From a virus (lineage: Duplodnaviria; Caudoviricetes), in the IMG/VR virus record IMGVR_UViG_3300009873_000009, positions 8,733-72,732 of that record: a DNA stretch of 64,000 nt; one strand, given 5' to 3'. Position numbers and translations under genes: made by a program. The notes under the pieces were generated by a model that was not told where the DNA came from, searched no databases, and worked only from the letters and a program-made list of their open reading frames with translations. Below, piece by piece: positions 4,127 through 63,455 of this stretch; the stretch's first letter is position 1; the number at the start of each line of letters is the position of its first letter.

Positions 4127-4136
4127 GACCAAAGCC

Positions 4137-4777: not shown

Positions 4778-4780
4778 GAG

Positions 4781-6118
4781 ATGTCTACGAAGACAAGGAA
4801 GAAGCGTGAGGAACGGACGGTCTCCGCCAAGCGCTACGCGAAGGAGCACAGCAGTGGCTTTTCGAGGACGACCATCACCATCCCCGAGAATATGTCCCTG
4901 TTCCAGCTCAAGAAGGCGGGGACGTACCGCCTGGAGATCATTCCGTTCACGGCTGGGGAGGGCAACCCGTTCGCGGACCCTGGCTCGCCTCACTTCGAGC
5001 GGACGTTCTGGATTCACCGGGATGTCGGCCCGAACAACGACGCTTATGTCTGCCCGAAGAAAACCTTCGGCAAGAAGTGCCCGATCTGCGAACACCGGGC
5101 CAAGCTCGGCAACGACCCGGACGTGGACGACGAGCTCGTGAAGGCGCTGGTCCCCAAGGAGCGTCAGCTCTTCTTGGTCCTCGACCACGCCGACCGGGAG
5201 AAGGGAGTGCAGCTGTGGGACATCTCCTTCCACCTGTTCGGCAAGCTGCTCAAGACCAAGCTCGACAACGCCGATGAGGAGGATGGCTACGAATACTTCG
5301 CCGATCTCAAGAAGGGTTTGACCCTCAAGCTCGGCGTGGAGGAGAAGTCGTTCGGCGGCAACACCTTCTACGAGGTCAAGGACATCGAGTTCAAGAAGCG
5401 CAAGGAGGAGCTCGACTTGGACATGGATGACCAGCCCTGTCTCGACGACCTGCTGAAGGAGATGGAGTACGACGAGCTTCGCAAGATCTTCCTCCAGACC
5501 GACGACGAAGATGATGAGGACGAGGAGGAGGATGACGACGACAAGCCGAAGAAGTCCTCGAAGAAGGACAAGAAGAAGTCCAAGCCGGCAGACGACGATG
5601 AGGATGAGGAGGAGGAGGACGACGATGAGGATGAGGAGGAGGACGATGAGGATGAGGACGATGATGAGCCCAAGAAGGGTAAGAAGAAGTCCTCCCCACC
5701 GGTGGCCAAGTCCAAGGGCATCAAGGTTGGCACGATGGTCGAGCACGAGGACCACGGCCTCTGCAAAGTCGTCCATATCAGCGGGGACGGCACGTCCCTC
5801 AAGCTGGAGGATGAGGATGGAGACGTCCACAAGGCAATCGGTGTAGCCGAGGTGGAGGTCGCCGAGGACGAAGACGAGGATGAACCCAAGAAGGGCAAGT
5901 CTTCAAGCAAGGGGAAGAAGTCGTCCAAGAAGTCCTCAGACGATGATGAGGACGAGGAGGATGACGACGACATCCCTTTTGACGATGACGAGGACGATGA
6001 CGAGGACGATGACGAGGACGATGACGACGACGAGCCCAAGAAGAAGAAGGGAAAGGGCAAGAAGTCCAAGCCGGCGGATGAGGAGGATGAGGATGAGGAT
6101 GACGAGGATGATGACTAA
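4781..6118 (+). CDS. single-stranded DNA-binding protein (T4 gp32-like) with very long D/E/K-rich tail
   Basis: FWIH..VGP...YVCPKKTFGKKCPICEH (zinc site, gp32-like); LWDISFHLFGKLL; acidic C-terminal half. Confidence 0.8.
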   Translation: MSTKTRKKREERTVSAKRYAKEHSSGFSRTTITIPENMSLFQLKKAGTYRLEIIPFTAGEGNPFADPGSPHFERTFWIHRDVGPNNDAYVCPKKTFGKKCPICEHRAKLGNDPDVDDELVKALVPKERQLFLVLDHADREKGVQLWDISFHLFGKLLKTKLDNADEEDGYEYFADLKKGLTLKLGVEEKSFGGNTFYEVKDIEFKKRKEELDLDMDDQPCLDDLLKEMEYDELRKIFLQTDDEDDEDEEEDDDDKPKKSSKKDKKKSKPADDDEDEEEEDDDEDEEEDDEDEDDDEPKKGKKKSSPPVAKSKGIKVGTMVEHEDHGLCKVVHISGDGTSLKLEDEDGDVHKAIGVAEVEVAEDEDEDEPKKGKSSSKGKKSSKKSSDDDEDEEDDDDIPFDDDEDDDEDDDEDDDDDEPKKKKGKGKKSKPADEEDEDEDDEDDD

Positions 6119-6166
6119 TCGTCCTGGCGACCGGTGGTGAAGTCCCATAACTAAACTATCACCTGA

Positions 6167-6233
6167 ACAGCGGTGGAACTAGGGGTGGCATCCCTGTTCT
6201 GGTACGCTTCGGGTTCAAATCCCAGCCGCTGTC
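6167..6233 (+). ncRNA. tRNA-like element lacking a D-arm (possible anticodon GGC)
   Basis: Perfect 7-bp acceptor-like stem ACAGCGG/CCGCTGT; T-loop GGGTTCAAATCCC; hairpin TAGGG-GTGGCAT-CCCTG; only 6 nt where the D-arm should be; no CCA. Intergenic between SSB and recA. Confidence 0.55.
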
Positions 6234-6252
6234 CTTCCCCCGGAGAACAATC

Positions 6253-7368
6253 ATGAGCACTGCCAAGAAACTGAAGTCCCTCCTTAGCAAGAAGTCCGCC
6301 AAGGAGAGCAAGACAATCCCAAGCTCGGACTTCGTGAGCACTGGTAGCACCTGCCTGAACCTGGCCATCTCAGACCGTCCTCGGTGCGGGTTCGCCAAGG
6401 GTAAATACTACCTGCTGGTAGGAGACAGCAGCTCCGGCAAGACGTTTCTCACCCTGACGTGCGTGGCTGAGGCCGCCATCAACAAGCACTTCGAAGAGTA
6501 CGACTTCGTGTATGACGACGTCGAGGGCGGGGCGCTCATGAACCTGGATAAGTTCTTCGGCCCTGCCGTAGTCGAGCGGTTGCAGTCTCCGGCAATGGAT
6601 GGGGACATGCCAGTCCATTCCTCCACCGTCGAGGAATTCTTCTACCACGTTGACGATCGGATCAAGTCCGGTCGGCCGTTTATCTACATCCTGGACAGCT
6701 CAGATGCTCTGACCAGCGACCAGGAGGAAGCCAAGTTCGAGGAGCAGAAGAAGGCCCACCGCAAGGGCAAGGAAACCACCGGCGTAATGACCGACGGTAA
6801 GGCCAAGCTCTACTCCTCGAAACTCCGCAAGATCATCAAGGGGCTACGCAAGACCGGGTCCATCCTCATCATCATCTGCCAGACTCGCGACAGTATGGGT
6901 GGCGGGTTCTCCGAGAAGACTCGCGCCGGCGGTCGAGCGTTAAAGTTCTACGCCGCGACGGAGATCTGGTCCTCCGTCAAGACCAAGCACAAGCGCGAAG
7001 TGCGGGGGAAGAAACGGACCATCGGGATTCAGTGCCTGTTGCAAATCAAGAAGAACCGCCACAGCGGTAAGGAGGGAACAACGGTGGAAGTTCCCATCTA
7101 CTGGTCAACAGGCATTGACGACATCGGCGCGTGCGTTGACTACCTGATTGAAGAGAAGCACCTGAAGAAGTCCCAAGGCATTATCAACGCTAAGAAGGAC
7201 TTCGGGTTCTCCGGAACCCGCGAGGATCTCATTAAGCATATCGAGGAGGAAGACCTCTACCGCGAGCTGCAAGGGGTCTGCGGGCAAGTCTGGAAGGAGG
7301 TCTTGTCCGAGTGCGTTGTCGACCGGCGCTCGCGGTTCCACAAGCACTCCGAGGAGAAAGATGAATAA
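6253..7368 (+). CDS. recA: RecA/UvsX-like recombinase
   Basis: STGSTCLNLAI, Walker A GDSSSGKT, YILDSSDAL, IICQTRD, GGRALKFYA. Confidence 0.9.
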   Translation: MSTAKKLKSLLSKKSAKESKTIPSSDFVSTGSTCLNLAISDRPRCGFAKGKYYLLVGDSSSGKTFLTLTCVAEAAINKHFEEYDFVYDDVEGGALMNLDKFFGPAVVERLQSPAMDGDMPVHSSTVEEFFYHVDDRIKSGRPFIYILDSSDALTSDQEEAKFEEQKKAHRKGKETTGVMTDGKAKLYSSKLRKIIKGLRKTGSILIIICQTRDSMGGGFSEKTRAGGRALKFYAATEIWSSVKTKHKREVRGKKRTIGIQCLLQIKKNRHSGKEGTTVEVPIYWSTGIDDIGACVDYLIEEKHLKKSQGIINAKKDFGFSGTREDLIKHIEEEDLYRELQGVCGQVWKEVLSECVVDRRSRFHKHSEEKDE

Positions 7369-7540
7369 CGACATACGGCTGCTGCTAGAAAGCATGGCCA
7401 GAAGCCTGGGTGGGGAGTCAGGGGGGTTGAAGCACTTCGGACTAGATACAAATGCCTGGCACAATCTCCTGTTCTTCCACGCGGAGAAAGCCATTTCACG
7501 GGAACAACGCAATGAAACGCTGGCTAATCCTGGACTGTAA
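7361..7540 (+). CDS. small hypothetical protein
   Basis: ATG after GAGGAG, overlapping the recA end; 59 aa. Confidence 0.4.
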   Translation: MNNDIRLLLESMARSLGGESGGLKHFGLDTNAWHNLLFFHAEKAISREQRNETLANPGL

Positions 7541-8372
7541 CTATCTGTGCCACCGCGCGTTCCATGCGATGGGGGCATTGGAATTCAACGACGCTCCGAC
7601 CGGCGTGATCTACGGGTTCCTCCGCGACCTGGCGGTCCTCCAAGACGAGCTCGACTCCACCGATCTGGTCTTCTGCTTCGACTACGGCCGCAGCCTTCGC
7701 TATGTAGACCTGCCCAGCTATAAGGCAAGCAGGAACCAGCGAGCCAAGGAAGCTCCTCGGGAGGAACAGATCACCCGCAAGCGATTCCGCCAGCAGGTGG
7801 ACCTGTTGCGGGATCACCTGCTGCGGGGGATTGGGTTCCGAAACATCTTCTTGCAGGAGGGATACGAAGCGGACGACATCATTGCTTCTGTTGTCCGCAA
7901 TACCATACCGAAGGAGGACATGGCCGTCGTTGTATCCGCGGACAAGGATTTATATCAAGTCTTGCGAGAGAAGAAGCCAGTTGCTTCGCTTTACAATCCG
8001 GCCACGAAGCGGTGGTTCACGATTGGGATGTTCCACCAGACCTACGGTATCGAGCCTGGGATGTGGTGCGACGTCAAGGCTAGATCCGGTTGTAAGACAG
8101 ACGACATTCCGGGTATCCCAGGCATCGGAGACATCACCGCCGCCGCGTACATCCGAGGAGCGTTAAAGCCAGGTAAGAAGTTCGACGCGATTGTGTGGGG
8201 AACCAAGATCTACAAGAAGAACCTACACCTCGTCACCCTGCCATATCCGGGAGTACGAACAGACTTCGAACTGCGGGAGGACAGGGTCACAATCAAGAAG
8301 TGGAAGGCCGTTTGTGCCGAGTTCGGTCTCCGCTCCATCCGCCACCAGGCACCAATCAGGAGGAAGCCGTGA
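7512..8372 (+). CDS. 5'-3' exonuclease / flap endonuclease (T4 RNase H, PolI N-terminal type)
   Basis: LILDCNYLCHRAF, FCFDYG..LR...LPSYKASR, GYEADDIIA, SADKDLYQ, TDDIPGIPGIG (helix-hairpin-helix). Confidence 0.92.
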   Translation: MKRWLILDCNYLCHRAFHAMGALEFNDAPTGVIYGFLRDLAVLQDELDSTDLVFCFDYGRSLRYVDLPSYKASRNQRAKEAPREEQITRKRFRQQVDLLRDHLLRGIGFRNIFLQEGYEADDIIASVVRNTIPKEDMAVVVSADKDLYQVLREKKPVASLYNPATKRWFTIGMFHQTYGIEPGMWCDVKARSGCKTDDIPGIPGIGDITAAAYIRGALKPGKKFDAIVWGTKIYKKNLHLVTLPYPGVRTDFELREDRVTIKKWKAVCAEFGLRSIRHQAPIRRKP

Positions 8373-8944
8373 GCAAGGCCAAGAAGGGGTCCAAGTTTGA
8401 ACGCGATACGTGCCGCACCCTGTCTCTCTGGTGGACCGGAGGGGAGCGGGACGACGTCTTCTGGCGCACTGGTGGGTCGGGAGGGCGCGCCAAGCTTCGA
8501 GGACGCCGCGGCGTAAGTACCTACGGGCAACATGGCGACATAGCTGCCACGGACCCAATCGGCGACCCGCTGATTGACGTCTTTACCATCGAGCTCAAGC
8601 GGGGATATAGCAAGCACACCATCCAAGACCTACTTGATAAGCCTCGGAAGGGCGCGAGGCCGAAAGTCCAGGAATGGATTGACCAGGCCATCGAGAGCTG
8701 GGAGCAGGCAGGGTCATTCACCTGGCTGCTCATCTTCCGCCGCGACAAGCGGGAAGCGCTTGTCATTTTCCCCACCAGCATCACCCGCCGGTTCTGGAGC
8801 GAAGGAACCTACGTTCCAGGATCGGCGACGCTGCGCTTAGACGCGAACAACCGACATCACGATCGCTTGACCGTGATGTCCCTTGCTGACTTCTTGGCGC
8901 TCGTCAAGCCAAGAATTGTGATTGCTCGTTCCCTGGATTCTTGA
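8369..8944 (+). CDS. Holliday junction resolvase (PD-(D/E)XK, Hjc-like)
   Basis: KKGSKFER, R...SGG, GDI...D, IELKRGY. GTG start overlaps the upstream stop. Confidence 0.8.
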   Translation: MSKAKKGSKFERDTCRTLSLWWTGGERDDVFWRTGGSGGRAKLRGRRGVSTYGQHGDIAATDPIGDPLIDVFTIELKRGYSKHTIQDLLDKPRKGARPKVQEWIDQAIESWEQAGSFTWLLIFRRDKREALVIFPTSITRRFWSEGTYVPGSATLRLDANNRHHDRLTVMSLADFLALVKPRIVIARSLDS

Positions 8945-8956
8945 AAAGGAGAAACC

Positions 8957-9286
8957 ATGCCCACGACCATGCGTCCCGTTAGTTCCTTCGAGGAGCTGGA
9001 GGACATGAAGAACAAGGCGGAGCTGCCCTGGTGGATTGTCGTCTCGGCCCCGGTTGGGATGCGAATTCATCTCGCTCCGGGCTCCGCACTATGTGAGCTC
9101 TTTGAAGGAACCAAGGCCAAGGAACGGGCCAACGCCCGCGCGCTGGAGCTGGCCAATCAAGACAGAGAGGTCAGACTTCTCAACGCCAAGGGGTTTGCAT
9201 CCTGGGGTGAGGACTCCGGAGGGGTCTTCAACCAAGACGGCAAGGGCAAGGACGCTTACGACAAAGGCGTCAAGACCGTAGTTTGA
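8957..9286 (+). CDS. hypothetical protein
   Basis: AAGGAG RBS; 109-aa ORF in the + strand operon. Confidence 0.6.
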   Translation: MPTTMRPVSSFEELEDMKNKAELPWWIVVSAPVGMRIHLAPGSALCELFEGTKAKERANARALELANQDREVRLLNAKGFASWGEDSGGVFNQDGKGKDAYDKGVKTVV

Positions 9287-9451
9287 CATGGGGAGCAGAA
9301 GCAAATACCCGCATAAGGCTTGGCCGGGCAGTATGCGGGAATGCCGCGAAAGCAACCCACCGATCCGATATCCTCACCCGACGTCACCTGTGGTGGGACA
9401 GCACCGAATCGGCAAGCGGCGGAAGTACCGACGGCTAAGAAGGAGAAAGCG

Positions 9452-9718
9452 ATGATGGAGGATGACTTAACACCAGACCGCCCGCGACAAGACATCCCCG
9501 AGGAGGAGATCGAGCTTCGCCGACAGGAGGTCTTAGCCAAGGTGAGTCCGTCCAAGCTGTTCGGACGGTCCCGAGCAATGGCAGGGGGCAAACCCCCCTC
9601 CGTTCTCGTCCGGTTCCACTCCTTAGAAGACCGTGAGGCCGTCAAGGAGGCCGCCCACAAGGCGGGGATGTCCCTCAACGCCTATTGCCTGAAGATGCTC
9701 AAGAAGGGAGTGGTGTGA
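9452..9718 (+). CDS. ribbon-helix-helix (Arc/HicB-like) DNA-binding protein
   Basis: C-terminal VLVRFHSLEDREAVKEAAHKAGMSLNAYCLKML; AAGGAG RBS before ATG 9452. Confidence 0.6.
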   Translation: MMEDDLTPDRPRQDIPEEEIELRRQEVLAKVSPSKLFGRSRAMAGGKPPSVLVRFHSLEDREAVKEAAHKAGMSLNAYCLKMLKKGVV

Positions 9719-10638
9719 TGCTAGAACGACTCACCGTCCGCAACTTCCAAGCTCTGCGTTCCTTGTCCATCGAATTCGACAAGGAGGTTACAGTCATTGT
9801 CGGTCCTAACGACCTTGGCAAGACTGCTGTCCTGCGAGCTTTGGAGTGGATTTGCACGAACCAGCCGGGCGGCGAGGAGTTCAAGACAACCGGCAAGAAG
9901 AAGGTCTCGGCGCGACTGGATGTTGACGGGCGGAGGGTGACGCGCCGCCGAGCGCCTGGACGTAATCAGTACCTGCTGGACGGGAAAGACTTCCGCTCGT
10001 TCGGGGCGCGAGTTCCTGACGAGATCGCCAAGGTGCTAAACGTCTCAGACATCAACTTCCAGTCGCAGCACGAGACGGCCTTCTGGCTCTCATCCTCCGC
10101 TGGGGACGTGAGCAAACGTCTGAACGCGATCATCAACCTCGGAGCCATAGACGAGTCCCTGGCCCGCGCTGCTGCCGAGGCCAGGACGGCAAAGACGAAG
10201 CTCGAGGTGTCCCACCAGCGCCTTCAAACTGCCAAGCGGGAACGGAAGGCACTGCTGTGGGCTGAGGAGTTTAAGAAGGACGCGGACCACCTCGAGGAGC
10301 TGCAACGGAGAGCACAGGACAAGCGCGAGGAATGCGAGCGTCTTGCGTTTCTCCTCAAGGAGGCGGGCAAAGCGGCCAAGAAGGCCAGGACGCGAGGACA
10401 ACTAGCGCAAGAAGGTTCAGCGCTCCTGGCCTCCGTGGGTGAGGCGTTGAAGGTCCGGCGGCGAGTCGCCGACCTGGAGATCGTTCTACAAACCATCCAA
10501 GAAGCACAGGAGGAGTTATGCGAAGCGCAAAACAACGTGACCGAATTAAGCGCAAGACTGCGGAAGTCCCTGAATGGACGTTGCCCGATGTGCGGCCAGA
10601 AGACGTCCTCGCTGTGCTGTGTTCCGACCTCCACCTAG
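9718..10638 (+). CDS. Rad50/SbcC/gp46-like ATPase, N-terminal half with zinc hook
   Basis: LTVRNFQ, Walker A GPNDLGKT, Q-loop FQSQHE, coiled coil, C-terminal CPMCG. No Walker B in this ORF. Confidence 0.85.
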   Translation: MLERLTVRNFQALRSLSIEFDKEVTVIVGPNDLGKTAVLRALEWICTNQPGGEEFKTTGKKKVSARLDVDGRRVTRRRAPGRNQYLLDGKDFRSFGARVPDEIAKVLNVSDINFQSQHETAFWLSSSAGDVSKRLNAIINLGAIDESLARAAAEARTAKTKLEVSHQRLQTAKRERKALLWAEEFKKDADHLEELQRRAQDKREECERLAFLLKEAGKAAKKARTRGQLAQEGSALLASVGEALKVRRRVADLEIVLQTIQEAQEELCEAQNNVTELSARLRKSLNGRCPMCGQKTSSLCCVPTST

Positions 10639-11555
10639 ACCATACTCCACCCTTGCTCCGGACCGCGGAGAAAGAGTGGTACGACGTGATGCGACGGCAG
10701 TTGCGGGAGCTTAAAGCAGTCGCTCAGCTGTGCGGCGACGCGCCCATCGTTTGCGCAGGGGACATTGTCCATCGCTGGCAACAACCGCCGGAGCTCATCA
10801 ACTTCATGCTCCAGGAGTTGCCGGATATGTACGCGGTCCGAGGACAACACGATCTGCCGTACCACAGCCACGACCTGATTGAGCGCTCTGCTTATTGGTC
10901 CATGGTCCTGGCCAGGCGCATCACAGACATCTCAGACAAGGGGGTCTACTTGCCTAATGGAGGCTCCCCTATACTGATTATGGGTTGTGCCTATCCTGGT
11001 GAGTTCGGAGACGCTTCGTTCTCGGTGAAACAACACCCAGCGGAGGCCGTGAAACTCGCCGTCGTCCACCGCTACTGCTGGATGACTGGCAACTCCCACG
11101 TGAAAGCGCTTCCGCGAGACAACGCTGGTCGTCAGATCGAACTCCTCAAGAAGTGCGGCTTCACCGCCGCGGTATTCGGCGACAATCACAAAGGTTTTCT
11201 CAAGGTCCAGAAAGGGTTCCATCTCTTCAATTCCGGGACGTTCATCGTCCGCAACTCTGACGAGGTCGGTTACACTCCGCAGATCGGTCTGCTCCTGAAG
11301 GATGGGTCCATCGTCCCTTGGATGCTTGACGTCAGCCAGGACCAGTATCTAGAAGGGTTGGAAGATTTTGACTACATCGAGGCTGAGCAAGTAGGCAGCA
11401 AGGAACTTGCCGAGCTCATTGACCAGTGCGAGTCCAAGGCGGATGGACGGTGGGACTTCCGCGAAGCGGTGCTTACAGCCCTCAAGAAAACCACCAAGAT
11501 CTCCCTGCCTGTGAAGGCTTTCATTCTCCGAGCTCTGGAAGACGTCTCGCGATAG
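10518..11555 (+). CDS. Mre11/SbcD/gp47-like metallophosphoesterase nuclease
   Basis: SDLHL, AGDIVH, RGQHD, VVHRY, FGDNH, NSGT motifs; strong AGGAGGAG RBS before ATG 10518. Confidence 0.88.
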   Translation: MRSAKQRDRIKRKTAEVPEWTLPDVRPEDVLAVLCSDLHLDHTPPLLRTAEKEWYDVMRRQLRELKAVAQLCGDAPIVCAGDIVHRWQQPPELINFMLQELPDMYAVRGQHDLPYHSHDLIERSAYWSMVLARRITDISDKGVYLPNGGSPILIMGCAYPGEFGDASFSVKQHPAEAVKLAVVHRYCWMTGNSHVKALPRDNAGRQIELLKKCGFTAAVFGDNHKGFLKVQKGFHLFNSGTFIVRNSDEVGYTPQIGLLLKDGSIVPWMLDVSQDQYLEGLEDFDYIEAEQVGSKELAELIDQCESKADGRWDFREAVLTALKKTTKISLPVKAFILRALEDVSR

Positions 11556-39794: not shown

Positions 39795-40073
39795 CTACGG
39801 GATCGCGCCCTCCGGTATCTCCGGCAAGGGTGGGACTTCCCCCTCAACGATCTCCAGGTCTTCCAGGACTCGATTTGCCAGCATGTAGAACGGCCAAGGC
39901 TCCTCGAGGAGCTGCTTCCCCTCCCACGGTTCCATGCCTGGCGCATGGAGACTTCCCACCAGGGACGCCTCGGCCTCGATCAGCAGAATAGCGGGCTGGT
40001 CCCCGGCCACTTCCCCCTTGTCCCAGGAGACCTCGAGTGGGACGCCCGCTCGTGTGCCACGTAGCCTGAACAT
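39795..40073 (-). CDS. small protein coupled to MuF gene (possible immunity/partner)
   Basis: Its ATG overlaps the MuF stop; 92 aa, acidic. Confidence 0.55.
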   Translation of the reverse strand: MFRLRGTRAGVPLEVSWDKGEVAGDQPAILLIEAEASLVGSLHAPGMEPWEGKQLLEEPWPFYMLANRVLEDLEIVEGEVPPLPEIPEGAIP

Positions 40074-43000
40074 TAGAGATCAAACCCTACAAGAATGCCA
40101 AGGGTGAAAGCAGCCTGTTCCTCATCAACCGCTTCGTCTAGTCCATAGGCTCCTTCCGCTCCCATGGACAAGATCTCGAAGTGGTCATCTCGACCGTAGA
40201 CGCGACCGGAGTAGTGGTTGAAGAACTCATCCTTGTAGCCAACCTCGGAGCTTCTGCCGTTGATGGCTGTTACCGTTTCACCTGGCTTGCGACGCTTCTG
40301 CAAGTAAGCAGACTCCACATGACCCAGCTGGGTTTTGGACTTGCGGCGATTGCGGCGGACGGACGTGTTCTCCACTACGTGCATGAGCTCATGAACCGCG
40401 GTGCCTGTCGTCCCTCGTTCCGAGCCCCCACTGATCCCAACTTCAATCAGGTGCGAGAAGACATCACCCTTCTGATAACCACGAGCCACTCCCTTCACTG
40501 TGATGCTTTTCTCGCTCGCGATCACCTTCAACCAATCCTTCGGCAGAAACTCCTTGCCCCGCTGCATTGCCTCGAAAGCCTTCTTATGTCCCTCGGAACC
40601 TTTAGCAGCTCGCATGTCAAGAGTCACACCACCGAAGTCTCGAACCTCCTTCAGCAGTCCTAGTACCTGCTCCGGCTTGGGCTTGTGGCGTTCCCGCAGC
40701 TTCCGAATCTCCTCTGCCGTAGCATTGTGCCGTTCACTAACCTCCTTGTATTTCCCCTCCCCATACTTCCGGTCCATCCAGTCCGCAAAGCCGAACGCCT
40801 TGTCCTTCGGCGCGGACTTGCGGTCTTCTGTCCACTCCCTAATGAACCTGTCCATCTCCGCTTGATTCGAGTCAGCTTCCCCTTGCAAAGCAGACAGCCG
40901 ACGTTCCTTATCTGGATTGAAACCCTGACGATTCTTCAGCTCCTCTTGCACTACCCTGCCGACGCGAACAGCGTCCTCCCACTTGGTTACACCCTTATCC
41001 CCAATCTCAGCCCACACCCGCTTCGAGAATTCCGTAGCCTCGCCAGTATGGGTGAGCCAGTCCGGCTTGCCTTCCACTCGAGGAGCGGGCGTCGTTGTCG
41101 TGATCGTAATGATGGGTCGCGGCGTTGTGGTAGGACGCGGGGCGATGAGCGGCTTGGGAGTGGTCGTTGTTCCTCCCGCAACCGGCCGTCCCGTGGTGGT
41201 CGTTGCGCCCTTGCTCGCTGTCAGGAACGCAGCCTGCTCCGGCGTCAGCTCGGCAGGAGCGCCACGCTTCTCCCATCCGCCTAGCTGTGCTCGGATAGTG
41301 GCATCGGAAGCTTTGAGGCCAGCAGCATCGAGCGCCGCCTTCGCCTCGCGGAAGGAGAACCCCTCCTTGCCCATCCAACGCACTACGGCTGTAGCGGCAT
41401 GGTCGCTGAATTCCGGAGCAATAGGCTTCGGGTCTACCGGCGGAGCTGTAGTAAGTGGCCGCGGCGGAAGCGTCGTTGTCACGTACACAGGAACAAGCGC
41501 CGGAACCCGCTTCACGCCAGCAAGCTTGCGAGCTGCGTGACGGTGATTGCCGTCCAGAATACGCCCGTCCTTGTCCAAGCCGATAGGAGCATAGTCTCCT
41601 AACCGGCCCGAGCTGCCGAAGCTCTGGATATGCTTGGACAAGAAGCGGCTGGAATCGTTGATGTAGTCATCGCCGAACTGTATCGGCTTGGCCTCCTCCA
41701 GGTCCACCATCCGCAACTCAAAGCCATCTGGAATCTGCTGTCCCGCTCGCGTGTAGAACGTAAGCAGACCTTGGATTTCGTAATCAGCTAACGCAGCTAC
41801 CTCAATGGAGACATCCTCCCCAATTTTTAGCAGCTTAGCATTGACCAGCTTGGGATTAACCCGAACTGCCCCTTCATGCTCCTTGAGCTTAGCCTGTAAC
41901 TCGGCAAGCTCCTCCTTGCTCCAATTGTCCCTGTCCCGGATGTCCTCACGCGAGGGAAGGGTGAGGCGGCTTGGTGGCGGCTTGGGTGTGGGGGTTGTGG
42001 TGGTCGTTGTGGTCGTAAGCTGAGGGTCGACCGGGGGCTTCGGTGGGGGCTTGGGGGGAAGTACGTTGCCGGCCCTCACGCCTCGCAGATACTCCGCCTG
42101 TTCCAAGGTGAAGTCAGCCGGCGTTCCCCGTTTCTCCCATCCGCCTAGCTGCGCTCGGATGGTGGCGTCCGAGACGTCAACACCCAGGTCGGCGAGGACT
42201 CGCTTCGCATCCTTGAAGCTCCACCCCTCCTTGCCCATCCAGCGGATGGCCTCCGTCGGCTGCTTGTTGAACAAGCTCGGTGCGGGAGCGCCTACCGTAA
42301 TCACATCTTGAGCAAAGGAGCGTTGCTGCGGTACGTCTAAGTCCGCGCCGGCCCACGCACTCTCCTCGTGCGGGTCTTCTGCTTTCGGTTTCTCGGCTCG
42401 CACGGAGGCAGACACAGCCTTGCCGATTTTAGCCTTGGTCCGCTTCTGGCCCTTTTCCTTGCGGTCGGCATCAGCAGGCACCCAAGCGCAACGGCAATTG
42501 GGATGGCGGGGGATGAGGCCTCGCGCCTCCTTCACCTTTAACACCACCCCTTCCATCGGTCCGCAGAGCGAGCAAACCTTGTCATCCCCTGCTGTAGACC
42601 ACTCCGCCATCACGCCCACTTCCTCGACGCCAAGACGATCAAAAGCGTCTAGCTGTCCCTCCGCGTGAGCGTGAATCATCTCCGTTCGGGCGATGGTCAT
42701 GGCCCGTTGCTTGGAGATGCCTATGGACTTGTGAATCTCCCCCGCCAGCTTCTTCGGATTCTGGCCGTGCGCAAGACCATCGGAGAGGATCTGGCTGAGG
42801 CGGGACGACATGCTAGCCGTCACCCCCTTCAGTCCCTCGAAGCTGCGAGTAGACAGCGCCTCGATACGCTTCGTGCCAGTCGGTGAGTCAAAAGCCTCGG
42901 TGAGAAACTGCTGCCGAGTCCCCGCATGGAAGTCGAGCTTCTCTGCCATAGCCTCCGGTCGAGCTTGGGCGAACGATCGCACGGTGCCATGCTTGTAGCT

Positions 43001-43306
43001 AGACCGAATATGCTCCGCGAGCCATGGCTCCTGCTTCTGGCCTGGTTTGACCTGGAGGATGCCGGCATCCACCTGCTTCTTCAGCCACTCGCGATACTGG
43101 TCAATCTTCTTGTCGTCGGACAGAAACTTCCAACGCACGTTCAGCGCGAGGGGGTTCGCAGGCGCAAGACCGAAGCAGTCCTCCTTATAGATCAGATCCC
43201 ACGAGGCGTTCTCCAGAGCAGTCCAACGCCGCAGCATGTCGGCGAGGAACCGCTTCCGGATTGCGCCGGTTCTGGTGGGATCGGTCCTTAGGGGGTTCGC
43301 GGCCAA
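40073..43306 (-). CDS. MuF/SPP1 gp7-like head morphogenesis protein with ParB-like and HExxH metallopeptidase extensions
   Basis: RA.TIARTE...AH..G, W.TAGDDKVC..C, PRHPNCRC (MuF); ILDGNHRHAA (ParB/Srx); TAVHELMH...EILSMG (zincin). Confidence 0.85.
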   Translation of the reverse strand: MAANPLRTDPTRTGAIRKRFLADMLRRWTALENASWDLIYKEDCFGLAPANPLALNVRWKFLSDDKKIDQYREWLKKQVDAGILQVKPGQKQEPWLAEHIRSSYKHGTVRSFAQARPEAMAEKLDFHAGTRQQFLTEAFDSPTGTKRIEALSTRSFEGLKGVTASMSSRLSQILSDGLAHGQNPKKLAGEIHKSIGISKQRAMTIARTEMIHAHAEGQLDAFDRLGVEEVGVMAEWSTAGDDKVCSLCGPMEGVVLKVKEARGLIPRHPNCRCAWVPADADRKEKGQKRTKAKIGKAVSASVRAEKPKAEDPHEESAWAGADLDVPQQRSFAQDVITVGAPAPSLFNKQPTEAIRWMGKEGWSFKDAKRVLADLGVDVSDATIRAQLGGWEKRGTPADFTLEQAEYLRGVRAGNVLPPKPPPKPPVDPQLTTTTTTTTPTPKPPPSRLTLPSREDIRDRDNWSKEELAELQAKLKEHEGAVRVNPKLVNAKLLKIGEDVSIEVAALADYEIQGLLTFYTRAGQQIPDGFELRMVDLEEAKPIQFGDDYINDSSRFLSKHIQSFGSSGRLGDYAPIGLDKDGRILDGNHRHAARKLAGVKRVPALVPVYVTTTLPPRPLTTAPPVDPKPIAPEFSDHAATAVVRWMGKEGFSFREAKAALDAAGLKASDATIRAQLGGWEKRGAPAELTPEQAAFLTASKGATTTTGRPVAGGTTTTPKPLIAPRPTTTPRPIITITTTTPAPRVEGKPDWLTHTGEATEFSKRVWAEIGDKGVTKWEDAVRVGRVVQEELKNRQGFNPDKERRLSALQGEADSNQAEMDRFIREWTEDRKSAPKDKAFGFADWMDRKYGEGKYKEVSERHNATAEEIRKLRERHKPKPEQVLGLLKEVRDFGGVTLDMRAAKGSEGHKKAFEAMQRGKEFLPKDWLKVIASEKSITVKGVARGYQKGDVFSHLIEVGISGGSERGTTGTAVHELMHVVENTSVRRNRRKSKTQLGHVESAYLQKRRKPGETVTAINGRSSEVGYKDEFFNHYSGRVYGRDDHFEILSMGAEGAYGLDEAVDEEQAAFTLGILVGFDL

Positions 43307-47784: not shown

Positions 47785-48524
47785 TGGGCGGCCTCCACCG
47801 TGAGCGCCCGGCGTTCGTTACGGAGCGCGTCCAGGATTTGCTTCCGCACCTCGAGCGGTAACTGTAGGTCGTCAACCGCCACGACAGACAGGTTGTGTTG
47901 GACAGCTCCAGTGTGCTCGTGCTCGATCTTCTCGCCGTAGCCCCGGTCGCGGTTCAGGGTCTTATTGGCGAAGATCGTTGCCGGGGAGTCCCCGCGGGCG
48001 ACCAGTCCCACCAAGGCGCTTTCAAAGAAGTCCTTCTTGGCTTGGTGAAGCTCGTCAATGAGGGCGGCGAAGTCCGGATCAAACTTGGTCCAGTAGCGTA
48101 CGATGTCGCGGCTCAGATTGAGGGCGCGACGAGCCGCCGACTGCGAGAAGTTGTAGTGGCTGAGCGCGTACAGAAACAGGTGCTGCCGAGTGTTCTTGCC
48201 TTCGTTGGCCAGCAGCGCCTCGATTCTCTGGACGGCGTTCGGTTCCTCCTCGCACTCCTGGAGCAAATCCCACAGCGCCTGAAGGCGGGGCGGCAGGCGG
48301 TTGTAGACGTACTCCCGAAAGTCCTCGGTGTGCACGCACTTGGACGCGCCCTTGCGAGCCTGCTTCAGCGCATAGCGGAACCCTGGCCGCTTCCGTTTCC
48401 AGAGCTGGATCGTGGCCGGACTCACGCCGAGCGCAGCGGCGATCTTCTCGTCACTCAATCCCTCGCGCGCCAGTTCGTAGGCATCGATGGCAAACTCCGG
48501 TTTCCAGAACGTCTTCTTCTTCAT
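47781..48524 (-). CDS. terS: terminase small subunit
   Basis: N-terminal HTH (GLSDEKIAAALGVSPATIQLWK), IFANKTLNRDRGYG; directly upstream of terL. Confidence 0.8.
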   Translation of the reverse strand: MKKKTFWKPEFAIDAYELAREGLSDEKIAAALGVSPATIQLWKRKRPGFRYALKQARKGASKCVHTEDFREYVYNRLPPRLQALWDLLQECEEEPNAVQRIEALLANEGKNTRQHLFLYALSHYNFSQSAARRALNLSRDIVRYWTKFDPDFAALIDELHQAKKDFFESALVGLVARGDSPATIFANKTLNRDRGYGEKIEHEHTGAVQHNLSVVAVDDLQLPLEVRKQILDALRNERRALTVEAAQ

Positions 48525-48883
48525 TGGTCCCCCGCCTGGGATGAGGCGTCAGGGGCGTACGATACTCGTGAAAAGTTCTGATAACACGCCTACAAAGCTA
48601 ACATCGGTCCCACTACTGCGCTCGGATAAGTCGCCGTTGATGGGTTGCCCTGGCCTCGCCTGCGCTCCCTGGCGGGGCGGTTGGAACAGGGCGGGGGACA
48701 GGGGGTCGGGGCGGCCGAGCGCGCGCTAGGCGAGCGCCTACGCGCTCCAGGAGGGGGTTTCCGAGGGGGCCGGCGGGCCGGATATAGGGAGAGGGGAGAG
48801 GGGGCGGCGGGGGGGTTGATGGACAGCTGTTATACCCCCATTGTGGGAAATCCGGCAGAAAATCAAAATATTTTTCCCGCACC

Positions 48884-49012
48884 TAACCTGATACCGGATA
48901 AGGGTTTCCGGCTCGTCCCCCACCGGGGGGCACGAATCATTATCCGGTTAATAGCGTATCCGGAAAACCGCCCGGAAAGGCGCTGTAACCTGATACCGGA
49001 TAAGGGTTTCCG
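48884..49012. repeat. 27-bp perfect direct repeat (2 copies) in non-coding late/early junction
   Basis: TAACCTGATACCGGATAAGGGTTTCCG at 48884-48910 and 48986-49012. Confidence 0.9.
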
Positions 49013-49273
49013 TCAAAAACCCCCCTTCTGGACCGACTCCGTATAGGGTATACGGCGTCAACAAACACCTGCGAGGGCAAACGAGTAGGGCAAACCGGGG
49101 CCGAGTAAGGGCAACCCCTAGTCGCCACCAGATCTTTTACAACCTAGAGAGTCCACGGGCAAGGCGCTGCGGCGCGTTGCAGACCAGAACACTGCCTGGC
49201 CGTTTCCGCGACGACCCTTCGGTCGCCACCCCCACAACAATCCAATGAGCAGGGGGACGCGAACGCATACAAC

Positions 49274-49329
49274 AACGCGAAACGCCGGTTCGCCGGCGTC
49301 TACGGGTTTGACCCGTACTGATGAGCGTT
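49274..49329 (+). ncRNA. type II hammerhead ribozyme 1
   Basis: AACGC-GAAA-CGCCGG(TTCG)CCGGCG-TC^-TACGGG(TTTGA)CCCGTA-CTGATGA-GCGTT; predicted cut after 49300. Confidence 0.9.
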
Positions 49330-49357
49330 CAACCAAGGAGCGTGCCGAGCCCGCTAA

Positions 49358-49445
49358 GGACGAAACGCTCGGATCAACATACCGCGGCACCAGCCCGGGA
49401 GTTACGTTCCGAGCGTCCAGGGGTTACGCCCCTGCTGATGAGTCC
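49358..49445 (+). ncRNA. type II hammerhead ribozyme 2 (34-nt loop III)
   Basis: GGAC-GAAA-CGCTCGGA..TCCGAGCG-TC^-CAGGGG(TTACG)CCCCTG-CTGATGA-GTCC; predicted cut after 49417. Confidence 0.9.
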
Positions 49446-49466
49446 ATCCAACTAAAGGAGTTTCCC

Positions 49467-49685
49467 ATGAACCAGAAAATGAAACGCTACGCCATCACCT
49501 ACCGCATCCCCACCAAAAGCACGCTTGGCAAACGCAAGTTTGTCGAGAAGCAGGGGTTCAGTGAGGAACACGTCAAGATTGAGTTCCTCGCGCTGCACCC
49601 GAACGCCATAGTGGAGTGCGTTCTTCCCATCCCAGGTCAAGAGCAGCCGGCCGAGGATTGCGGTAGAGGTCGTCCCCGCCAATGA
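49467..49685 (+). CDS. early hypothetical protein
   Basis: AAAGGAG RBS 10 nt after HHR2; MNQKMKRYAITYRIP... Confidence 0.7.
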   Translation: MNQKMKRYAITYRIPTKSTLGKRKFVEKQGFSEEHVKIEFLALHPNAIVECVLPIPGQEQPAEDCGRGRPRQ

Positions 49686-49693
49686 GATGCTAA

Positions 49694-49745
49694 GGACGAA
49701 ACGCCCTCGCGGGCGTCCGGTTGTAACGCAACCGCTGATGAGTCC
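49694..49745 (+). ncRNA. type II hammerhead ribozyme 3
   Basis: GGAC-GAAA-CGCCC(TCGC)GGGCG-TC^-CGGTTG(TAACG)CAACCG-CTGATGA-GTCC; predicted cut after 49717. Confidence 0.92.
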
Positions 49746-49768
49746 ATCCCAACCTTACGAGGTTCCAA

Positions 49769-50242
49769 ATGCTTACACTTTACAAAGGCCGTCTGTCCTG
49801 GAACGGATACCGCAACGCATGCCCGCCGGACATCTACGACCTGGCGCTGCGTCCCACCCCGAACAACCTGCGAAGGCTGTATTCCCTCGGCTATCTGCCG
49901 CAGGGAGAGTTGGAGACCTGTCTTACCATTCTCGGTTCTGTTACCCCTAGCGAAGAAGGAGATGAGACCATGTCGAAGTCCTCCACGAAGAAGGCCGCCA
50001 AGTCCGAGTCCACCCCCCGCGTTACGCTCTTCGAGCAGAGCGTCACCGCAGTCCTCCGGTTCATGGGGCTGAACGACTGGGTGTTCGATGACGCCCGCCT
50101 CGCGCTCAATACGCTGGGCGCGAGCGAGATCAGCGACACGACCATCCGCATTCAACTGCGGGCGGGCAAGAAGGGCGAGCGCGGCGAGCCGGCCAAGTTG
50201 ACCAAGTCGCAGATCGCGTCACTCAAGAAGGCCGCGAAGTAG
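49769..50242 (+). CDS. early protein carrying the shared 'RWMG' helical domain (second in-frame start at 49970)
   Basis: C-terminal VTAVLRFMG...DDARLAL..LG...SDTTIRIQLRAG..GERGEPAKLT; strong AAGGAG RBS before internal ATG 49970. Confidence 0.7.
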   Translation: MLTLYKGRLSWNGYRNACPPDIYDLALRPTPNNLRRLYSLGYLPQGELETCLTILGSVTPSEEGDETMSKSSTKKAAKSESTPRVTLFEQSVTAVLRFMGLNDWVFDDARLALNTLGASEISDTTIRIQLRAGKKGERGEPAKLTKSQIASLKKAAK

Positions 50243-50297
50243 GACGAAACGCCAGGGTGCCCTGGCGTCGGACGGTTGTGCCGTCCCTGATGAGTCC
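50242..50297 (+). ncRNA. type II hammerhead ribozyme 4
   Basis: GGAC-GAAA-CGCCAGG(GTGC)CCTGGCG-TC^-GGACGG(TTGTG)CCGTCC-CTGATGA-GTCC; predicted cut after 50269; first G is the last base of the upstream TAG. Confidence 0.92.
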
Positions 50298-50318
50298 CAA
50301 GTCACAAGGAGCAAACCC

Positions 50319-50768
50319 ATGCCTGCCAAACGCCGTCACCTTCTCTGCATCCGGGAGAACCTCCGTCCATTCTTCGAACGCCGTCTGAACGTCCTCGGAA
50401 TCGACCACTCGTTCGACAACGACCACAGCCGCGAGAACGGGATCTACACCGTTCGGTGCTCGGCCTCCGACGCGCAGTACGTCACCGCCTGGCTGGAAGG
50501 GGTGAGCGCCGCGACCTCCTGGGAGGTTCCCTTCAAGACCCGCTTCACCCTCCCTCGCGTGATCGAGTGCACCTTCGCCCACGTTTGCGACAACGAACTG
50601 ATCGAGGACGAAGAGAATCTTGAGGACTTCGAGAAGGTTCTCCGGACCGCCAAGTCGATCAGCGAGATTGTAGACCAGCTGTACGCCTACACCGGCATCG
50701 AACACGGTGACGGGTGGCAGTTCGTCCTCGACGCGCTCGCGGAGGGGGTCGGTGAGACAATCCACTAG
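50319..50768 (+). CDS. early hypothetical protein
   Basis: CAAGGAG RBS just after HHR4; acidic C-terminus; its TAG overlaps HHR5. Confidence 0.7.
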   Translation: MPAKRRHLLCIRENLRPFFERRLNVLGIDHSFDNDHSRENGIYTVRCSASDAQYVTAWLEGVSAATSWEVPFKTRFTLPRVIECTFAHVCDNELIEDEENLEDFEKVLRTAKSISEIVDQLYAYTGIEHGDGWQFVLDALAEGVGETIH

Positions 50769-50819
50769 GACGAAACGCCCGCGAGGGCGTAGTGCCGTTT
50801 TGCGGCACCTGATGAGTCC
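50768..50819 (+). ncRNA. type II hammerhead ribozyme 5
   Basis: GGAC-GAAA-CGCCC(GCGA)GGGCG-TA^-GTGCCG(TTTTG)CGGCAC-CTGATGA-GTCC; GUA site, predicted cut after 50791. Confidence 0.9.
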
Positions 50820-50838
50820 CTTTTTCGGAGTTTCCAAA

Positions 50839-51060
50839 ATGTACGTCATCGTCACCAGCGTCGGTCTCCAACTGTTCCTTAGCAAGCGTGAGGACGGAGG
50901 ACGCGAAGAACTGGCCGGCTTGGTGCCTCGCATCGAGCAGGCATGGCACTTCCGGACCTACCTAGACGCGAGCGAGATGATCCGAAAGCGCTACGCCGCG
51001 TACCGCGAGCACGGCAAGGCGTGCACCCCCTTAGAGGTGCGCGAGGTCGTCGGCGAGTAA
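50839..51060 (+). CDS. early hypothetical protein
   Basis: GGAG RBS after HHR5; 73 aa. Confidence 0.6.
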   Translation: MYVIVTSVGLQLFLSKREDGGREELAGLVPRIEQAWHFRTYLDASEMIRKRYAAYREHGKACTPLEVREVVGE

Positions 51061-51074
51061 AACCCGTAAAACAA

Positions 51075-51121
51075 GGGGTTTTTAACCCCGCTTGTGCTAC
51101 AAATGTAGGATTCGTTAGACT
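51075..51121 (+). promoter_or_regulatory. repeated sigma70-like early promoter/operator, copy 1
   Basis: TTGTGC-18-TAGACT with an internal palindrome CTACA-AA-TGTAG; near-identical copy at 54871. Confidence 0.65.
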
Positions 51122-51146
51122 GGCAACCCCTCACCGAGAGCACCCA

Positions 51147-52346
51147 ATGAAAACCACGAAGCAAGAATTCCTCGACGCGCTCAAGGAGCACACCGGCTAT
51201 TGGGTCGGCACGACCAAGCTGCTCGACGCGCTCGACCTACCGAACAGCGCCCGGCCGCAAACGCTCATGATCCTCCACTCGCTCACCGAGCAGGGAGTTC
51301 TGGAACGGCATGGCAAGGCGAAGTTCGCATGGCGGTGGGTTCCCAACACCAAGACCGCCGCGGACATCAACTGGAAGCACAACCCCGCCAGCGTCAAGAC
51401 CGGCGGAGGCGAGGGGAGCGGGACCACCACGGTCAACAATGAGCGGGTCGACCAGCTGAACGACCTCGTCGCCAACCTCGAGACGACCGTCGAGTCGCTG
51501 ACCAAGCGGCTCGAAGAGGTCGCCGCGACGAGCGTCCGCGAGATCATCCTGAAGAACTACGAAGGGCAGCGCACGACACGGCTCAAGGACGTCACCCTCC
51601 CCAAGCAGTTCGACCAGACGCTGTCCCTGGCCAACTGCCGGCGCAACATCCTCCTCGTGGGTCCGGCCGGTTGCGGCAAGACCTACCTGGCGCGCCTCAT
51701 CGCCAAGTCCCTGAAGTTCTCCTTCGCGTCCCTGTCCTGCACGGCAGGCATGAGCGAGTCCCACCTGCTGGGCCGCGCGACGCCGGACATCCAGAAGGGA
51801 ACCACGGTGTATCAACGGTCCGCGTTCCTGGAATGCTTCGAGGAGGGAGGGGTCTTCCTGCTCGATGAGTTGGACGCCGCGGACTCCAATACCCTCCTGG
51901 TGATCAACGACGCTTTGTCCTCCGGTCGCTGCTCCGTTCCCAATCGTCCGGACAACCCGGTCGCCGTCCGGCATGAGGATTTCGTTCTCATCGCAACGGC
52001 CAACACGTTCGGGCGCGGCGCGAGCCGGGTCTACGTCGGTCGTAACCAGTTAGACGAAGCGACGCTCGATCGGTTCCGCATCGGGACCATCGAATGCGAC
52101 TACGACCGCGCCGTCGAAGCGAGCGTTTGCCCGGACGAGACCATCCGGGTGCGGTTGCAGACCATCCGGCGGAGTATTGAGGACGCGTCCCTCCGACGCA
52201 TCCTGTCAACCCGGTTCCTCGCGGACGCCTACGTCATGCATAAGTCCGCGGGCTGGACCATCGAGACCATCCTCAATACCTACTTCCAAGGCTGGTCTCC
52301 CGAGGAGCGTGCCAAGGTTGACATCCCCTACGCCAATTCCCACTAA
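51147..52346 (+). CDS. MoxR/CbbQ-NorQ-type AAA+ ATPase with N-terminal HTH and coiled coil
   Basis: GPAGCGKT, FLLDELDAAD, IATANTFGRG...YVGRNQLDEATLDRF. Confidence 0.88.
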   Translation: MKTTKQEFLDALKEHTGYWVGTTKLLDALDLPNSARPQTLMILHSLTEQGVLERHGKAKFAWRWVPNTKTAADINWKHNPASVKTGGGEGSGTTTVNNERVDQLNDLVANLETTVESLTKRLEEVAATSVREIILKNYEGQRTTRLKDVTLPKQFDQTLSLANCRRNILLVGPAGCGKTYLARLIAKSLKFSFASLSCTAGMSESHLLGRATPDIQKGTTVYQRSAFLECFEEGGVFLLDELDAADSNTLLVINDALSSGRCSVPNRPDNPVAVRHEDFVLIATANTFGRGASRVYVGRNQLDEATLDRFRIGTIECDYDRAVEASVCPDETIRVRLQTIRRSIEDASLRRILSTRFLADAYVMHKSAGWTIETILNTYFQGWSPEERAKVDIPYANSH

Positions 52347-62370: not shown

Positions 62371-62742
62371 ATGATTGCTTTCGTGCTGATGTTCCTGGCG
62401 GCGGACGTACAGCCTCCCCAGGTCGGCGAGGTGTACGACGTCAAAGGGTCCGTATTCGCGGCCAAGTCCCTCCTCCATGTCGAGGAGCTCGGCAAGGCGA
62501 TGCTCGCCAAGGACAGCGAGGGAGTAGTGGACATGGTCGAGAAGGGGTCCGCGATGTTCTTCGGTCCTCGTGCCGGCGGCGCGTGGGTGTTGCGGGTTCT
62601 CGAGGTTAAGAACGCGGACGCTTTCAACCGATACCCCTACGTGGAGTGTCGGTTGCTACGAGACGGGAAGGTGGTCGGCACTGTGTTCGTTTTCCAGGTC
62701 TACTTCAAAGACCGTACCGTGATAAGGAAGGAGGGCGGATGA
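62371..62742 (+). CDS. hypothetical protein with N-terminal hydrophobic segment
   Basis: MIAFVLMFLAAD; AGGAG RBS. Confidence 0.55.
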   Translation: MIAFVLMFLAADVQPPQVGEVYDVKGSVFAAKSLLHVEELGKAMLAKDSEGVVDMVEKGSAMFFGPRAGGAWVLRVLEVKNADAFNRYPYVECRLLRDGKVVGTVFVFQVYFKDRTVIRKEGG

Positions 62743-63455
62743 GGAAACCCAAGAAGTTCAAGAAGGTCCGCACCGAGAAAGAGAAACAGCGTGACTTCAA
62801 GTTTGCTCGTGACGAGCCGGTCAAGGAGACCAGCTTGGACGAGAAACTCGCGCAGTTGGACGGTCGTGAGGTTCTCGAGGTGCGGATGGGGGAAGACGAC
62901 GTCGGGTGGGAGTTTCGAGTCAAAGACATGAAGGAGACGCTAGGGTGCCTCGCACTCACGTTCCTCTGGAACCCGAAGCCGAAAGACTCGGAAGACTATG
63001 ACGTGCTCCTGCTCGGCGGAGTCCCCTACCTCGTCCGCGGCAAGCAGCTGCTGAAGTTGCGGCGGTTGATCGCCATGCAAAGCATGGAGGATCAGGAACG
63101 TCACAACGGCATCCCAGGGACGAGGACCAAGGACGGCAGACTGCAGTGGGTTGGCCCTGGCGTATGTCCGGAGGATGTCTACGCCAAGATCGAAGGACGC
63201 TCGGCCAAGACGCAACAGGAGAGCGGGAAGCGGGATAAGGTTTTCGGGTTTCCCGCAACCGCTGTCCTGCGTTGGATGGGGAAGGAGGGATGGAGCAAGG
63301 CGGAGGCGAGGAAAGCGTTGGACAGCCTCGGTGCGGAGGTTGCAGACGCGACTATAGCGGCCCAGCTCCGGGCGGGGGCGACAGGCGAGCGGGGACCACC
63401 TGCCGCACTCTCGTCTTCCCAGGAAAACGACCTCTATACCGCAGCAGCTCAATGA
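62739..63455 (+). CDS. hypothetical protein with C-terminal shared 'RWMG' domain
   Basis: FGFPATAVLRWMGKEGWSKAEARKALDSLG...DATIAAQLRAG..GERGPPAAL. Confidence 0.65.
   Translation: MRKPKKFKKVRTEKEKQRDFKFARDEPVKETSLDEKLAQLDGREVLEVRMGEDDVGWEFRVKDMKETLGCLALTFLWNPKPKDSEDYDVLLLGGVPYLVRGKQLLKLRRLIAMQSMEDQERHNGIPGTRTKDGRLQWVGPGVCPEDVYAKIEGRSAKTQQESGKRDKVFGFPATAVLRWMGKEGWSKAEARKALDSLGAEVADATIAAQLRAGATGERGPPAALSSSQENDLYTAAAQ

Follow-up and report, generated by a model that had tools for sequence, protein, structure and literature searches.

What is a tailed phage doing with five self-cleaving RNA motifs in a row? The question is raised by the stretch of IMG/VR record IMGVR_UViG_3300009873_000009 analysed here, a 64-kb window covering bases 8733-72732 of the 72.7-kb record of an uncultured tailed phage that is estimated to be 94% complete. 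A preliminary description of the window, made from the letters alone, had noted five hammerhead ribozymes (HHR1 to HHR5) at 49274-50819, punctuating a run of small genes, and had proposed that they cut a polycistronic phage RNA into single-gene units. Our analysis points to the same role: constitutive self-processing of the rightward polycistronic RNA, which would release single-gene messages whose ends are protected by hairpins, is the probable function of the array, as judged from sequence, fold and placement. This mechanism is plausible and already published, and the locus is no new kind of system.

We searched both strands of the window with a structure descriptor that required CUGANGA, GAAA, a stem II of at least 3 base pairs (bp), stems I and III of at least 4 bp and U-H at the cut site. 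It returned exactly five type II hammerheads, all on the + strand, and no further hammerhead on either strand of the 64 kb; the chance expectation, obtained with 200 order-1 Markov random sequences, is about 0.045 matches per window. The order of elements is the same in all five, namely the 3' strand of stem II, GAAA, the stem III hairpin, GUC or GUA, the stem I hairpin, CUGAUGA, and the 5' strand of stem II, which is the type II circular permutation with stems I and III closed by loops and stem II open. The conserved core positions C3-U4-G5-A6-N7-G8-A9 and G12-A13-A14 are occupied by CUGAUGA and GAAA in every copy, the G10.1-C11.1 pair is formed in each by the G after CUGAUGA and the C before GAAA, and the A15.1-U16.1 pair is likewise present throughout, together with an H17 that makes the cleavage triplet GUC in HHR1-4 and GUA in HHR5. 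Stem II has 4-5 bp, and stem I has 6 bp and a loop of 5 nucleotides (nt) that opens with U.

The three-way hammerhead junction was both the minimum free energy and the centroid fold of all five elements (RNAfold). In the five-copy alignment, which had been fitted to the model, 97.6% of the base-pair cells are standard pairs and 10 of the 17 pairs are altered on both sides; the covariation score was reached in 0 of 500 column shuffles, and slid controls pair at 26-45%. Stem II and its flanks are identical in HHR2-5, with divergent stems I and III. The five coordinates and five cut positions of the preliminary description were reproduced to the base by our descriptor scan, and its accounts of a full catalytic core with GUC or GUA triplets, of stems that covary between copies and of a uniform 6-bp stem I with a 5-nt, U-initial loop all agree with the above. 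We are thus highly confident that the five elements are real ribozymes, and from their sequence, fold, core and placement we infer cleavage at the predicted sites (Table 1).

How the ribozymes sit among the genes is what suggests their use. From the upstream stop codon to the start of the ribozyme there are 8, -1 and -1 nt for HHR3, HHR4 and HHR5, respectively: HHR3 starts 8 nt past the gA stop codon, TGA, and the first G of HHR4 and of HHR5 is the G of the TAG that ends gB and gC. On the other side, a start codon follows 21, 23, 21 and 19 nt past HHR2, HHR3, HHR4 and HHR5 (the ATG of gA being the one 21 nt downstream of HHR2), with GGAG or GAGG placed 10-12 nt before the ATG. Both the placement of HHR3-5 at stop codons, with TAG supplying a ribozyme base in two of them, and the ribosome-binding site and ATG some 20 nt behind HHR2-5 had been pointed out in the preliminary description, and our measurements bear them out. 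HHR1 and HHR2 lie 28 nt apart in the 5' leader, and the AAGGAG behind HHR1 (49335-49340), which resembles a Shine-Dalgarno (SD) site, has no usable open reading frame (ORF).

Type II hammerheads on the coding strand, in a repeated layout of stop codon, ribozyme, ribosome-binding site and ATG, are most economically read as processing sites, and this part of the earlier proposal stands. The rightward mRNA would cover the small accessory genes and then the replication genes, and each ribozyme would fold once its 52-88 nt had been made and would cut itself after C17 (A17 in HHR5). Since each ribozyme begins at the upstream stop codon or just past it and leaves about 20 nt to the start codon that follows, gene-sized pieces should result from the cuts, namely a discarded 5' leader, a gene-less piece of 117 nt, messages of 300 nt for gA, 552 nt for gB and 522 nt for gC, and a 3' piece beginning with gD. 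A message released between two cuts would carry, on its 5' side, a 5'-OH, the G+C-rich stem I hairpin, a single-stranded core strand and an exposed SD site and, on its 3' side, the ORF with its stop codon and the stem III hairpin with its terminal 2',3'-cyclic phosphate. Because every stop codon lies 5' of its cut site, no message would be left without one. At the 5'-OH, 5'-end-dependent entry of RNase E would be inefficient, 3' exonucleases would be impeded by the 3' hairpin, no host RNase would be required, and a stability and translation of each gene that are independent of neighbouring sequence would be the likely consequences. The benefit in stabilisation and insulation is less certain than the reality of the ribozymes. 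With five intact ribozymes, four small genes and a precise geometry of stop codon, ribozyme and ribosome-binding site, the locus offers a compact, clonable test case for asking what self-processing does to mRNA stability and translation.

Cutting a phage message between its genes has well-known parallels. RNase III cuts the early mRNA of phage T7 in intercistronic gaps to give messages with hairpin ends, and synthetic ribozyme insulators such as RiboJ uncouple expression from upstream sequence by cleavage. The likeness lies in a polycistronic phage RNA that would be cut between genes and in genes that would be uncoupled from the sequence upstream; in contrast to T7, the array would cut itself, leaving 5'-OH and 2',3'-cyclic phosphate ends instead of 5'-phosphate and 3'-OH, and would need no host enzyme.

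Natural type II hammerheads were discovered by Perreault et al. (2011; PLoS Comput Biol 7:e1002031, PMC3088659), who described multiple hammerheads flanking individual prophage genes and proposed that a long phage RNA is converted to single-gene mRNAs. In their work, transcripts carrying several ribozymes, from C. scindens, A. caulinodans and A. tumefaciens, were cleaved in vitro at every expected site, those of A. tumefaciens also in E. coli. The processing idea was taken up again in a later review, which regards what these ribozymes do in bacteria and phages as still largely elusive (Weinberg et al., 2019; PMC6765202). Cleavage in vivo is known for three type II hammerheads of D. vulgaris, which lie close to phage-like genes (PMC8782182). 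The prophage clusters of Clostridium scindens, Azorhizobium caulinodans and the Agrobacterium tumefaciens ardA locus resemble the array in having several same-strand hammerheads around single small phage genes of varying identity, in the ribozyme class, type II included, and in the proposed processing role; correspondingly, the window has five + strand hammerheads around gA, gB, gC and gD, with phage genes on both sides. The window array differs from these clusters in its five copies within 1.55 kb, where the paper's text speaks of triple arrangements, in its position at the head of the replication-side arm of a free (metagenomic) phage genome, known here from sequence alone, and in its two back-to-back leader ribozymes and the stop codon built into the 5' edge of the ribozyme. 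The statement in the preliminary description that no serial ribozyme array had been described is contradicted by both of these publications (PMC3088659, PMC6765202) and by arrays of 3-8 copies in IMG/VR.

These further arrays came from an exact-pattern scan of IMG/VR for GGACGAAACG, a gap of 12-42 nt and CTGATGAGTCC, a pattern that does not require stems. It matched 114 viral contigs, and in all but 2 of these loci the descriptor recognises one or more complete hammerheads. Together with the window, the matched contigs hold 238 ribozymes, 176 of them distinct, and 31 loci have at least three on one strand, the largest array counting 8. For 172 of the 238, the distance between the stop codon of the upstream long ORF and the ribozyme is -1 to +3 nt (64 at -1 and 51 at 0), and the next start codon is mostly 12-28 nt downstream. 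The catalytic nucleotides are invariant or nearly so in the 176 distinct relatives, where only the tolerated N7 varies (U or C); stem II has 4 bp in 158 and stem I with its loop measures 17 nt in 115. Cargo genes have a median length of 95 amino acids (aa) and are mostly of unknown function, few of the 150 scanned matching any family. The arrays of seven and eight ribozymes (Table 1) share with the window the arrangement A-GGAC-GAAAC...CUGAUGA-GUCC-A, the 6-bp stem I, the 5-nt U-initial loop, the overlap with stop codons, the 12-28 nt to the next start codon and the small cargo genes of unknown function, and differ from it in the genes themselves, no homologue of gA-gD being among them, on contigs that are not close relatives of the window phage. 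The window array is a typical member of a common viral arrangement. Within this set, the core reads CUGACGA (N7 = C) in 36 of the 176, and GUA replaces GUC in 9 of the 176.

Several results weigh against the processing reading. RF02276 (Hammerhead_II, Rfam 15) has no match in the whole window at its gathering threshold, a score of 37 bits that is an operational criterion and not a ribozyme property. Under an E-value threshold, four of the five copies were listed below this cut-off, at 19.6 to 36.4 bits, so that the Rfam comparison that had been suggested as a check came out mixed, with four sub-threshold copies, none at or above 37 bits and HHR4 unlisted. Pseudoknots between loop I and the 3' tail are not enriched over shuffled tails among the 176 distinct relatives. 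In the type II consensus this pseudoknot has at least 4 bp, pairs loop I with the tail 3' of stem II and occurs in most type II hammerheads, not all; in the window, loop I and tail are complementary over 5 bp in HHR4 (UUGUG/CACAA) and HHR5 (UUUUG/CAAAA) and over only 3 bp in HHR1-3. Perreault et al. (2011) found the pseudoknot to be critical for fast cleavage at physiological Mg2+ in the type II ribozyme that they tested and, given that its enrichment is absent in the subclass found here, the rate in vivo would depend on some other tertiary contact. Hammerheads are also absent from the seven large terminase (TerL) loci (29-42% identity) and the one locus with a relative (43%) of the ATPase gene gE, which follows the array, so the array is not conserved in the sampled lineage; a search of related genomes, also proposed earlier, recovered the spacing of stop codon, ribozyme and start codon across the IMG/VR set and not in the nearest relatives by TerL (41% identity) and by gE. 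A scan of 48300-51400 found no sigma-70 promoter. Finally, no test of the benefit of processing in phages, be it stability or insulation, is on record (PMC6765202).

The low Rfam scores coincide with a difference in architecture. The window copies match RF02276 in topology and catalytic core, in the A that precedes stem II and in two strands, CGAAAC and CUGAUGAG. They differ from it in stem II, which is very short in the Rfam consensus and 4-5 bp long here, and in the 3' tail: the consensus tail is conserved and forms a pseudoknot with loop I, and in the subclass of the window copies the complementarity of tail and loop I does not exceed that obtained with shuffled tails. A covariance model built from 108 hammerheads, all from other viral contigs (model R1), scored all five copies at 55.7-67.6 bits (E 1e-13 to 4e-17) and found no additional copy in the 72.7-kb record, searched in full (the window and the 8.7 kb outside it). 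A subclass-specific model therefore recovers all five at E below 1e-13, and because the curated Rfam threshold misses every one of them, standard annotation will overlook the subclass. Compensatory changes affect 15 of the 17 pairs in the alignment of the 108 sequences, counts that are not independent evidence since the descriptor by which these sequences had been chosen demands pairing.

As to the tertiary contact, an A stands directly 5' of stem II in 96% of the set and loop I opens with U in over 90%. Together with the fixed geometry of a 6-bp stem I and a 4-bp stem II, this suggests a contact between loop I and the stem II flank as in other natural hammerheads. These observations bear on the proposal that the folds are kept as structures, for instance as stabilising hairpins, binding sites for RNases or proteins, or translational insulators, and cut slowly or not at all in vivo for want of the usual tertiary contact. 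The lack of a pseudoknot signal in the subclass and the sub-threshold Rfam scores are in line with such a role, as is the slowness of minimal hammerheads, which lack tertiary contacts, at physiological Mg2+. The pseudoknot deletion data of Perreault et al. (2011; PMC3088659) may be compared here. Pure structure would not demand catalytic nucleotides that are invariant in five of five copies and nearly so in 176 relatives, and the A before stem II, the loop-opening U and the constant stem lengths point to a contact that such a role presupposes to be missing. A purely structural, non-cutting role is therefore unlikely, and we give it little credence.

The same A allows a variant of the processing reading. 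Among 154 related ribozymes examined, 90 (58%) have it within a stop codon (TAA, TGA or TAG). In place of the described pseudoknot, the loop-opening U may contact this A, 5' of the 4-bp stem II and often belonging to the upstream stop codon; a terminating ribosome would then melt stem II, GAAA and stem III and couple cleavage to translation of the upstream gene. We consider this doubtful; if true, processing would be a translation-gated switch instead of a constitutive cutter.

The variable cargo raises the alternative that the ribozymes are mainly joints of exchangeable gene cassettes, whose near-identical 11-nt core strands (AGGACGAAACG, CUGAUGAGUCC) serve as microhomology for swapping, duplication and loss between phages, self-cleavage being secondary or freeing a newly acquired gene from its context. 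Such an explanation concerns origin and is compatible with processing. It would account for cargo genes that vary between arrays and are ORFans, gA and gC being without homologue, for HHR1, whose SD site has no gene behind it, as after the loss of a cassette, for the identical stem II and flanks of HHR2-5 beside divergent stems I and III, for the absence of the array from the closest TerL and gE relatives, for copies that share stem sequences within other arrays (e.g., L042 and L098) and for the inconstant identities of hammerhead-flanked genes (PMC3088659). Yet tblastn found no match to gA-gD in all fetched loci, no recombination junction or cassette common to two phages was demonstrated, and microhomology alone leaves the conserved catalytic nucleotides and the compensatory stem changes unexplained. 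As the main reason for the array, cassette exchange thus seems rather improbable to us.

The ends that cleavage would leave also suit another fate. RtcB ligase uses 5'-OH and 2',3'-cyclic phosphate ends, and a host enzyme of this type could join the pieces between ribozymes into circular mRNAs or a circular 117-nt small RNA. Besides this end chemistry, each of the unit lengths (117, 300, 552 and 522 nt) divides evenly by 3, and the possibility of circular products was raised by Perreault et al. (2011; PMC3088659). In the other arrays, multiples of three occur in only 31 of 121 units, which is the chance level, and circular or spliced products were sought in the same study and none were found. 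Endless circular translation is impossible for the three gene-bearing units because they have stops in every circular frame, and the 117-nt unit alone has one stop-free circular frame, in which neither its ATG nor its GTG lies. We treat the divisible lengths as a coincidence, rejecting circular translation, and regard circularisation as very improbable. The shortest ribozyme-to-ribozyme unit among the 121 in other arrays is 248 nt, compared with the gene-less 117 nt here. This piece (49301-49417), which has the SD-like AAGGAG and no ORF, could be a small RNA set free by the cuts or a cassette joint left without its gene.

When the processed RNA would be made can be judged from the genes around the array. 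To its left, on the - strand, runs an operon that starts with the small terminase and continues with the large terminase, the portal and a MuF-like head protein. To its right, on the + strand, gA-gD and a weak terminator-like hairpin are followed by gE, which encodes a CobS/MoxR-like AAA ATPase, and by a DUF7192 protein, and farther on by a helicase, a primase, a replication initiator and a DnaB-like helicase. The array thus heads the non-structural, replication-side arm, next to a 750-bp divergent control region. Given that this + arm diverges from the terminase, portal and head arm and leads into replication genes, an early or middle transcript is plausible; the label of earliest transcript in the preliminary description is a reading of gene order only. 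The hairpin just after gD is a possible but weak candidate for an intrinsic terminator closing the punctuated block, and a terminator consensus scan was not above shuffles, the only site reported being on the - strand at 51089-51075.

Table 1. Ribozymes, genes and terminator-like hairpin of the array (positions in the window), and the largest arrays of the same subclass in other viral contigs (positions in the respective contig).
Feature	Position	Strand	Description	Predicted cut after	RF02276 score	Model R1 score
HHR1	49274-49329	+	Stem II AACGC/GCGUU (5 bp); stem III loop UUCG; GUC	49300	36.4 bits, E 9e-5	55.7 bits, E 1e-13
HHR2	49358-49445	+	Stem II GGAC/GUCC; 34-nt insertion lengthening stem III; GUC	49417	19.6 bits	63.4 bits, E 6e-16
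HHR3	49694-49745	+	Type II; GUC	49717	27.9 bits	67.6 bits, E 4e-17
HHR4	50242-50297	+	Type II; GUC	50269	Not listed even at E ≤ 10	64.4 bits, E 3e-16
HHR5	50768-50819	+	Type II; GUA	50791	20.8 bits	60.3 bits, E 5e-15
gA	49467-49685	+	72 aa; SD AAAGGAG; G+C by codon position 0.59/0.38/0.70			
gB	49769-50242	+	157 aa; alternative start 49970 behind GAAGGAG			
gC	50319-50768	+	149 aa; G+C by codon position 0.62/0.39/0.83			
gD	50839-51060	+	73 aa; G+C by codon position 0.66/0.41/0.81; last gene of the ribozyme-punctuated block			
Hairpin	51059-51083	+	A-tract and U-tract arms; just after gD; fold z-score only -1.0			
L042 array	3033-6291	+	8 same-subclass hammerheads in 3.2 kb, between small ORFs			
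L035 array	7232-11139	+	7 same-subclass hammerheads, between small ORFs			
L079 array		-	7 same-subclass hammerheads, between small ORFs			

None of the four punctuated genes matched a Pfam or PHROG family, and searches of 5.8 billion proteins with gA and gC recovered the queries alone. The G+C content of gA-gD by codon position follows a coding-type pattern on the + strand. The C-terminal 75-80 aa of gB (49970-50242) have 41-44% identity to residues 341-408 and 635-695 of the MuF-like protein (40073-43306, - strand) and 51% to the C-terminus of the ORF at 62646-63455; residues 78-157 of gB are thus a domain that occurs twice in the MuF-like head protein and once at the end of that ORF, a homology that supports translation of gB. 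Antisense ORFs at 49637-50155 and 50223-50933 were rejected as genes and taken for shadows, their G+C content by codon position not being coding-like.

A 27-nt direct repeat without mismatches, TAACCTGATACCGGATAAGGGTTTCCG, lies in the divergent control region, its two copies (48884-48910 and 48986-49012, + strand) being 102 nt apart and enclosing a partial inverted copy at 48935-48948 (- strand). It has no further occurrence in the window, and the repeats may be tandem promoters or operators. Also within this 750-bp intergenic region, G runs abound on the + strand at 48680-48830, where the strand of the terminase operon is accordingly C-rich. The leader at 49013-49273 has no significant structure; upstream of HHR1 it carries three copies of AGGGCAA(A/C)C at 49074-49117, spaced by 13 and 21 nt.

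The segment 48500-52500 had no blastn match among 50,697 phage records. Among the 150 ORFs directly behind hammerheads (loci L007-L120), DUF932 (PF06067) was the commonest family with 8 members, and phrog_1221 and phrog_572, both of unknown function, had 6 members each; one ORF had an ArdC N-terminal anti-restriction domain, and no structural family was among the matches listed for the 150. Two contigs of the IMG/VR set, L112 (hammerhead at 4890-4943, gene at 6111-6992, 44% identity) and L115 (1714-1770 and 3690-4532, 34% identity), each encode a homologue of the gE ATPase that is preceded on its own strand by one type II hammerhead at a distance of 1.2-2 kb, which hints at a similar module order.

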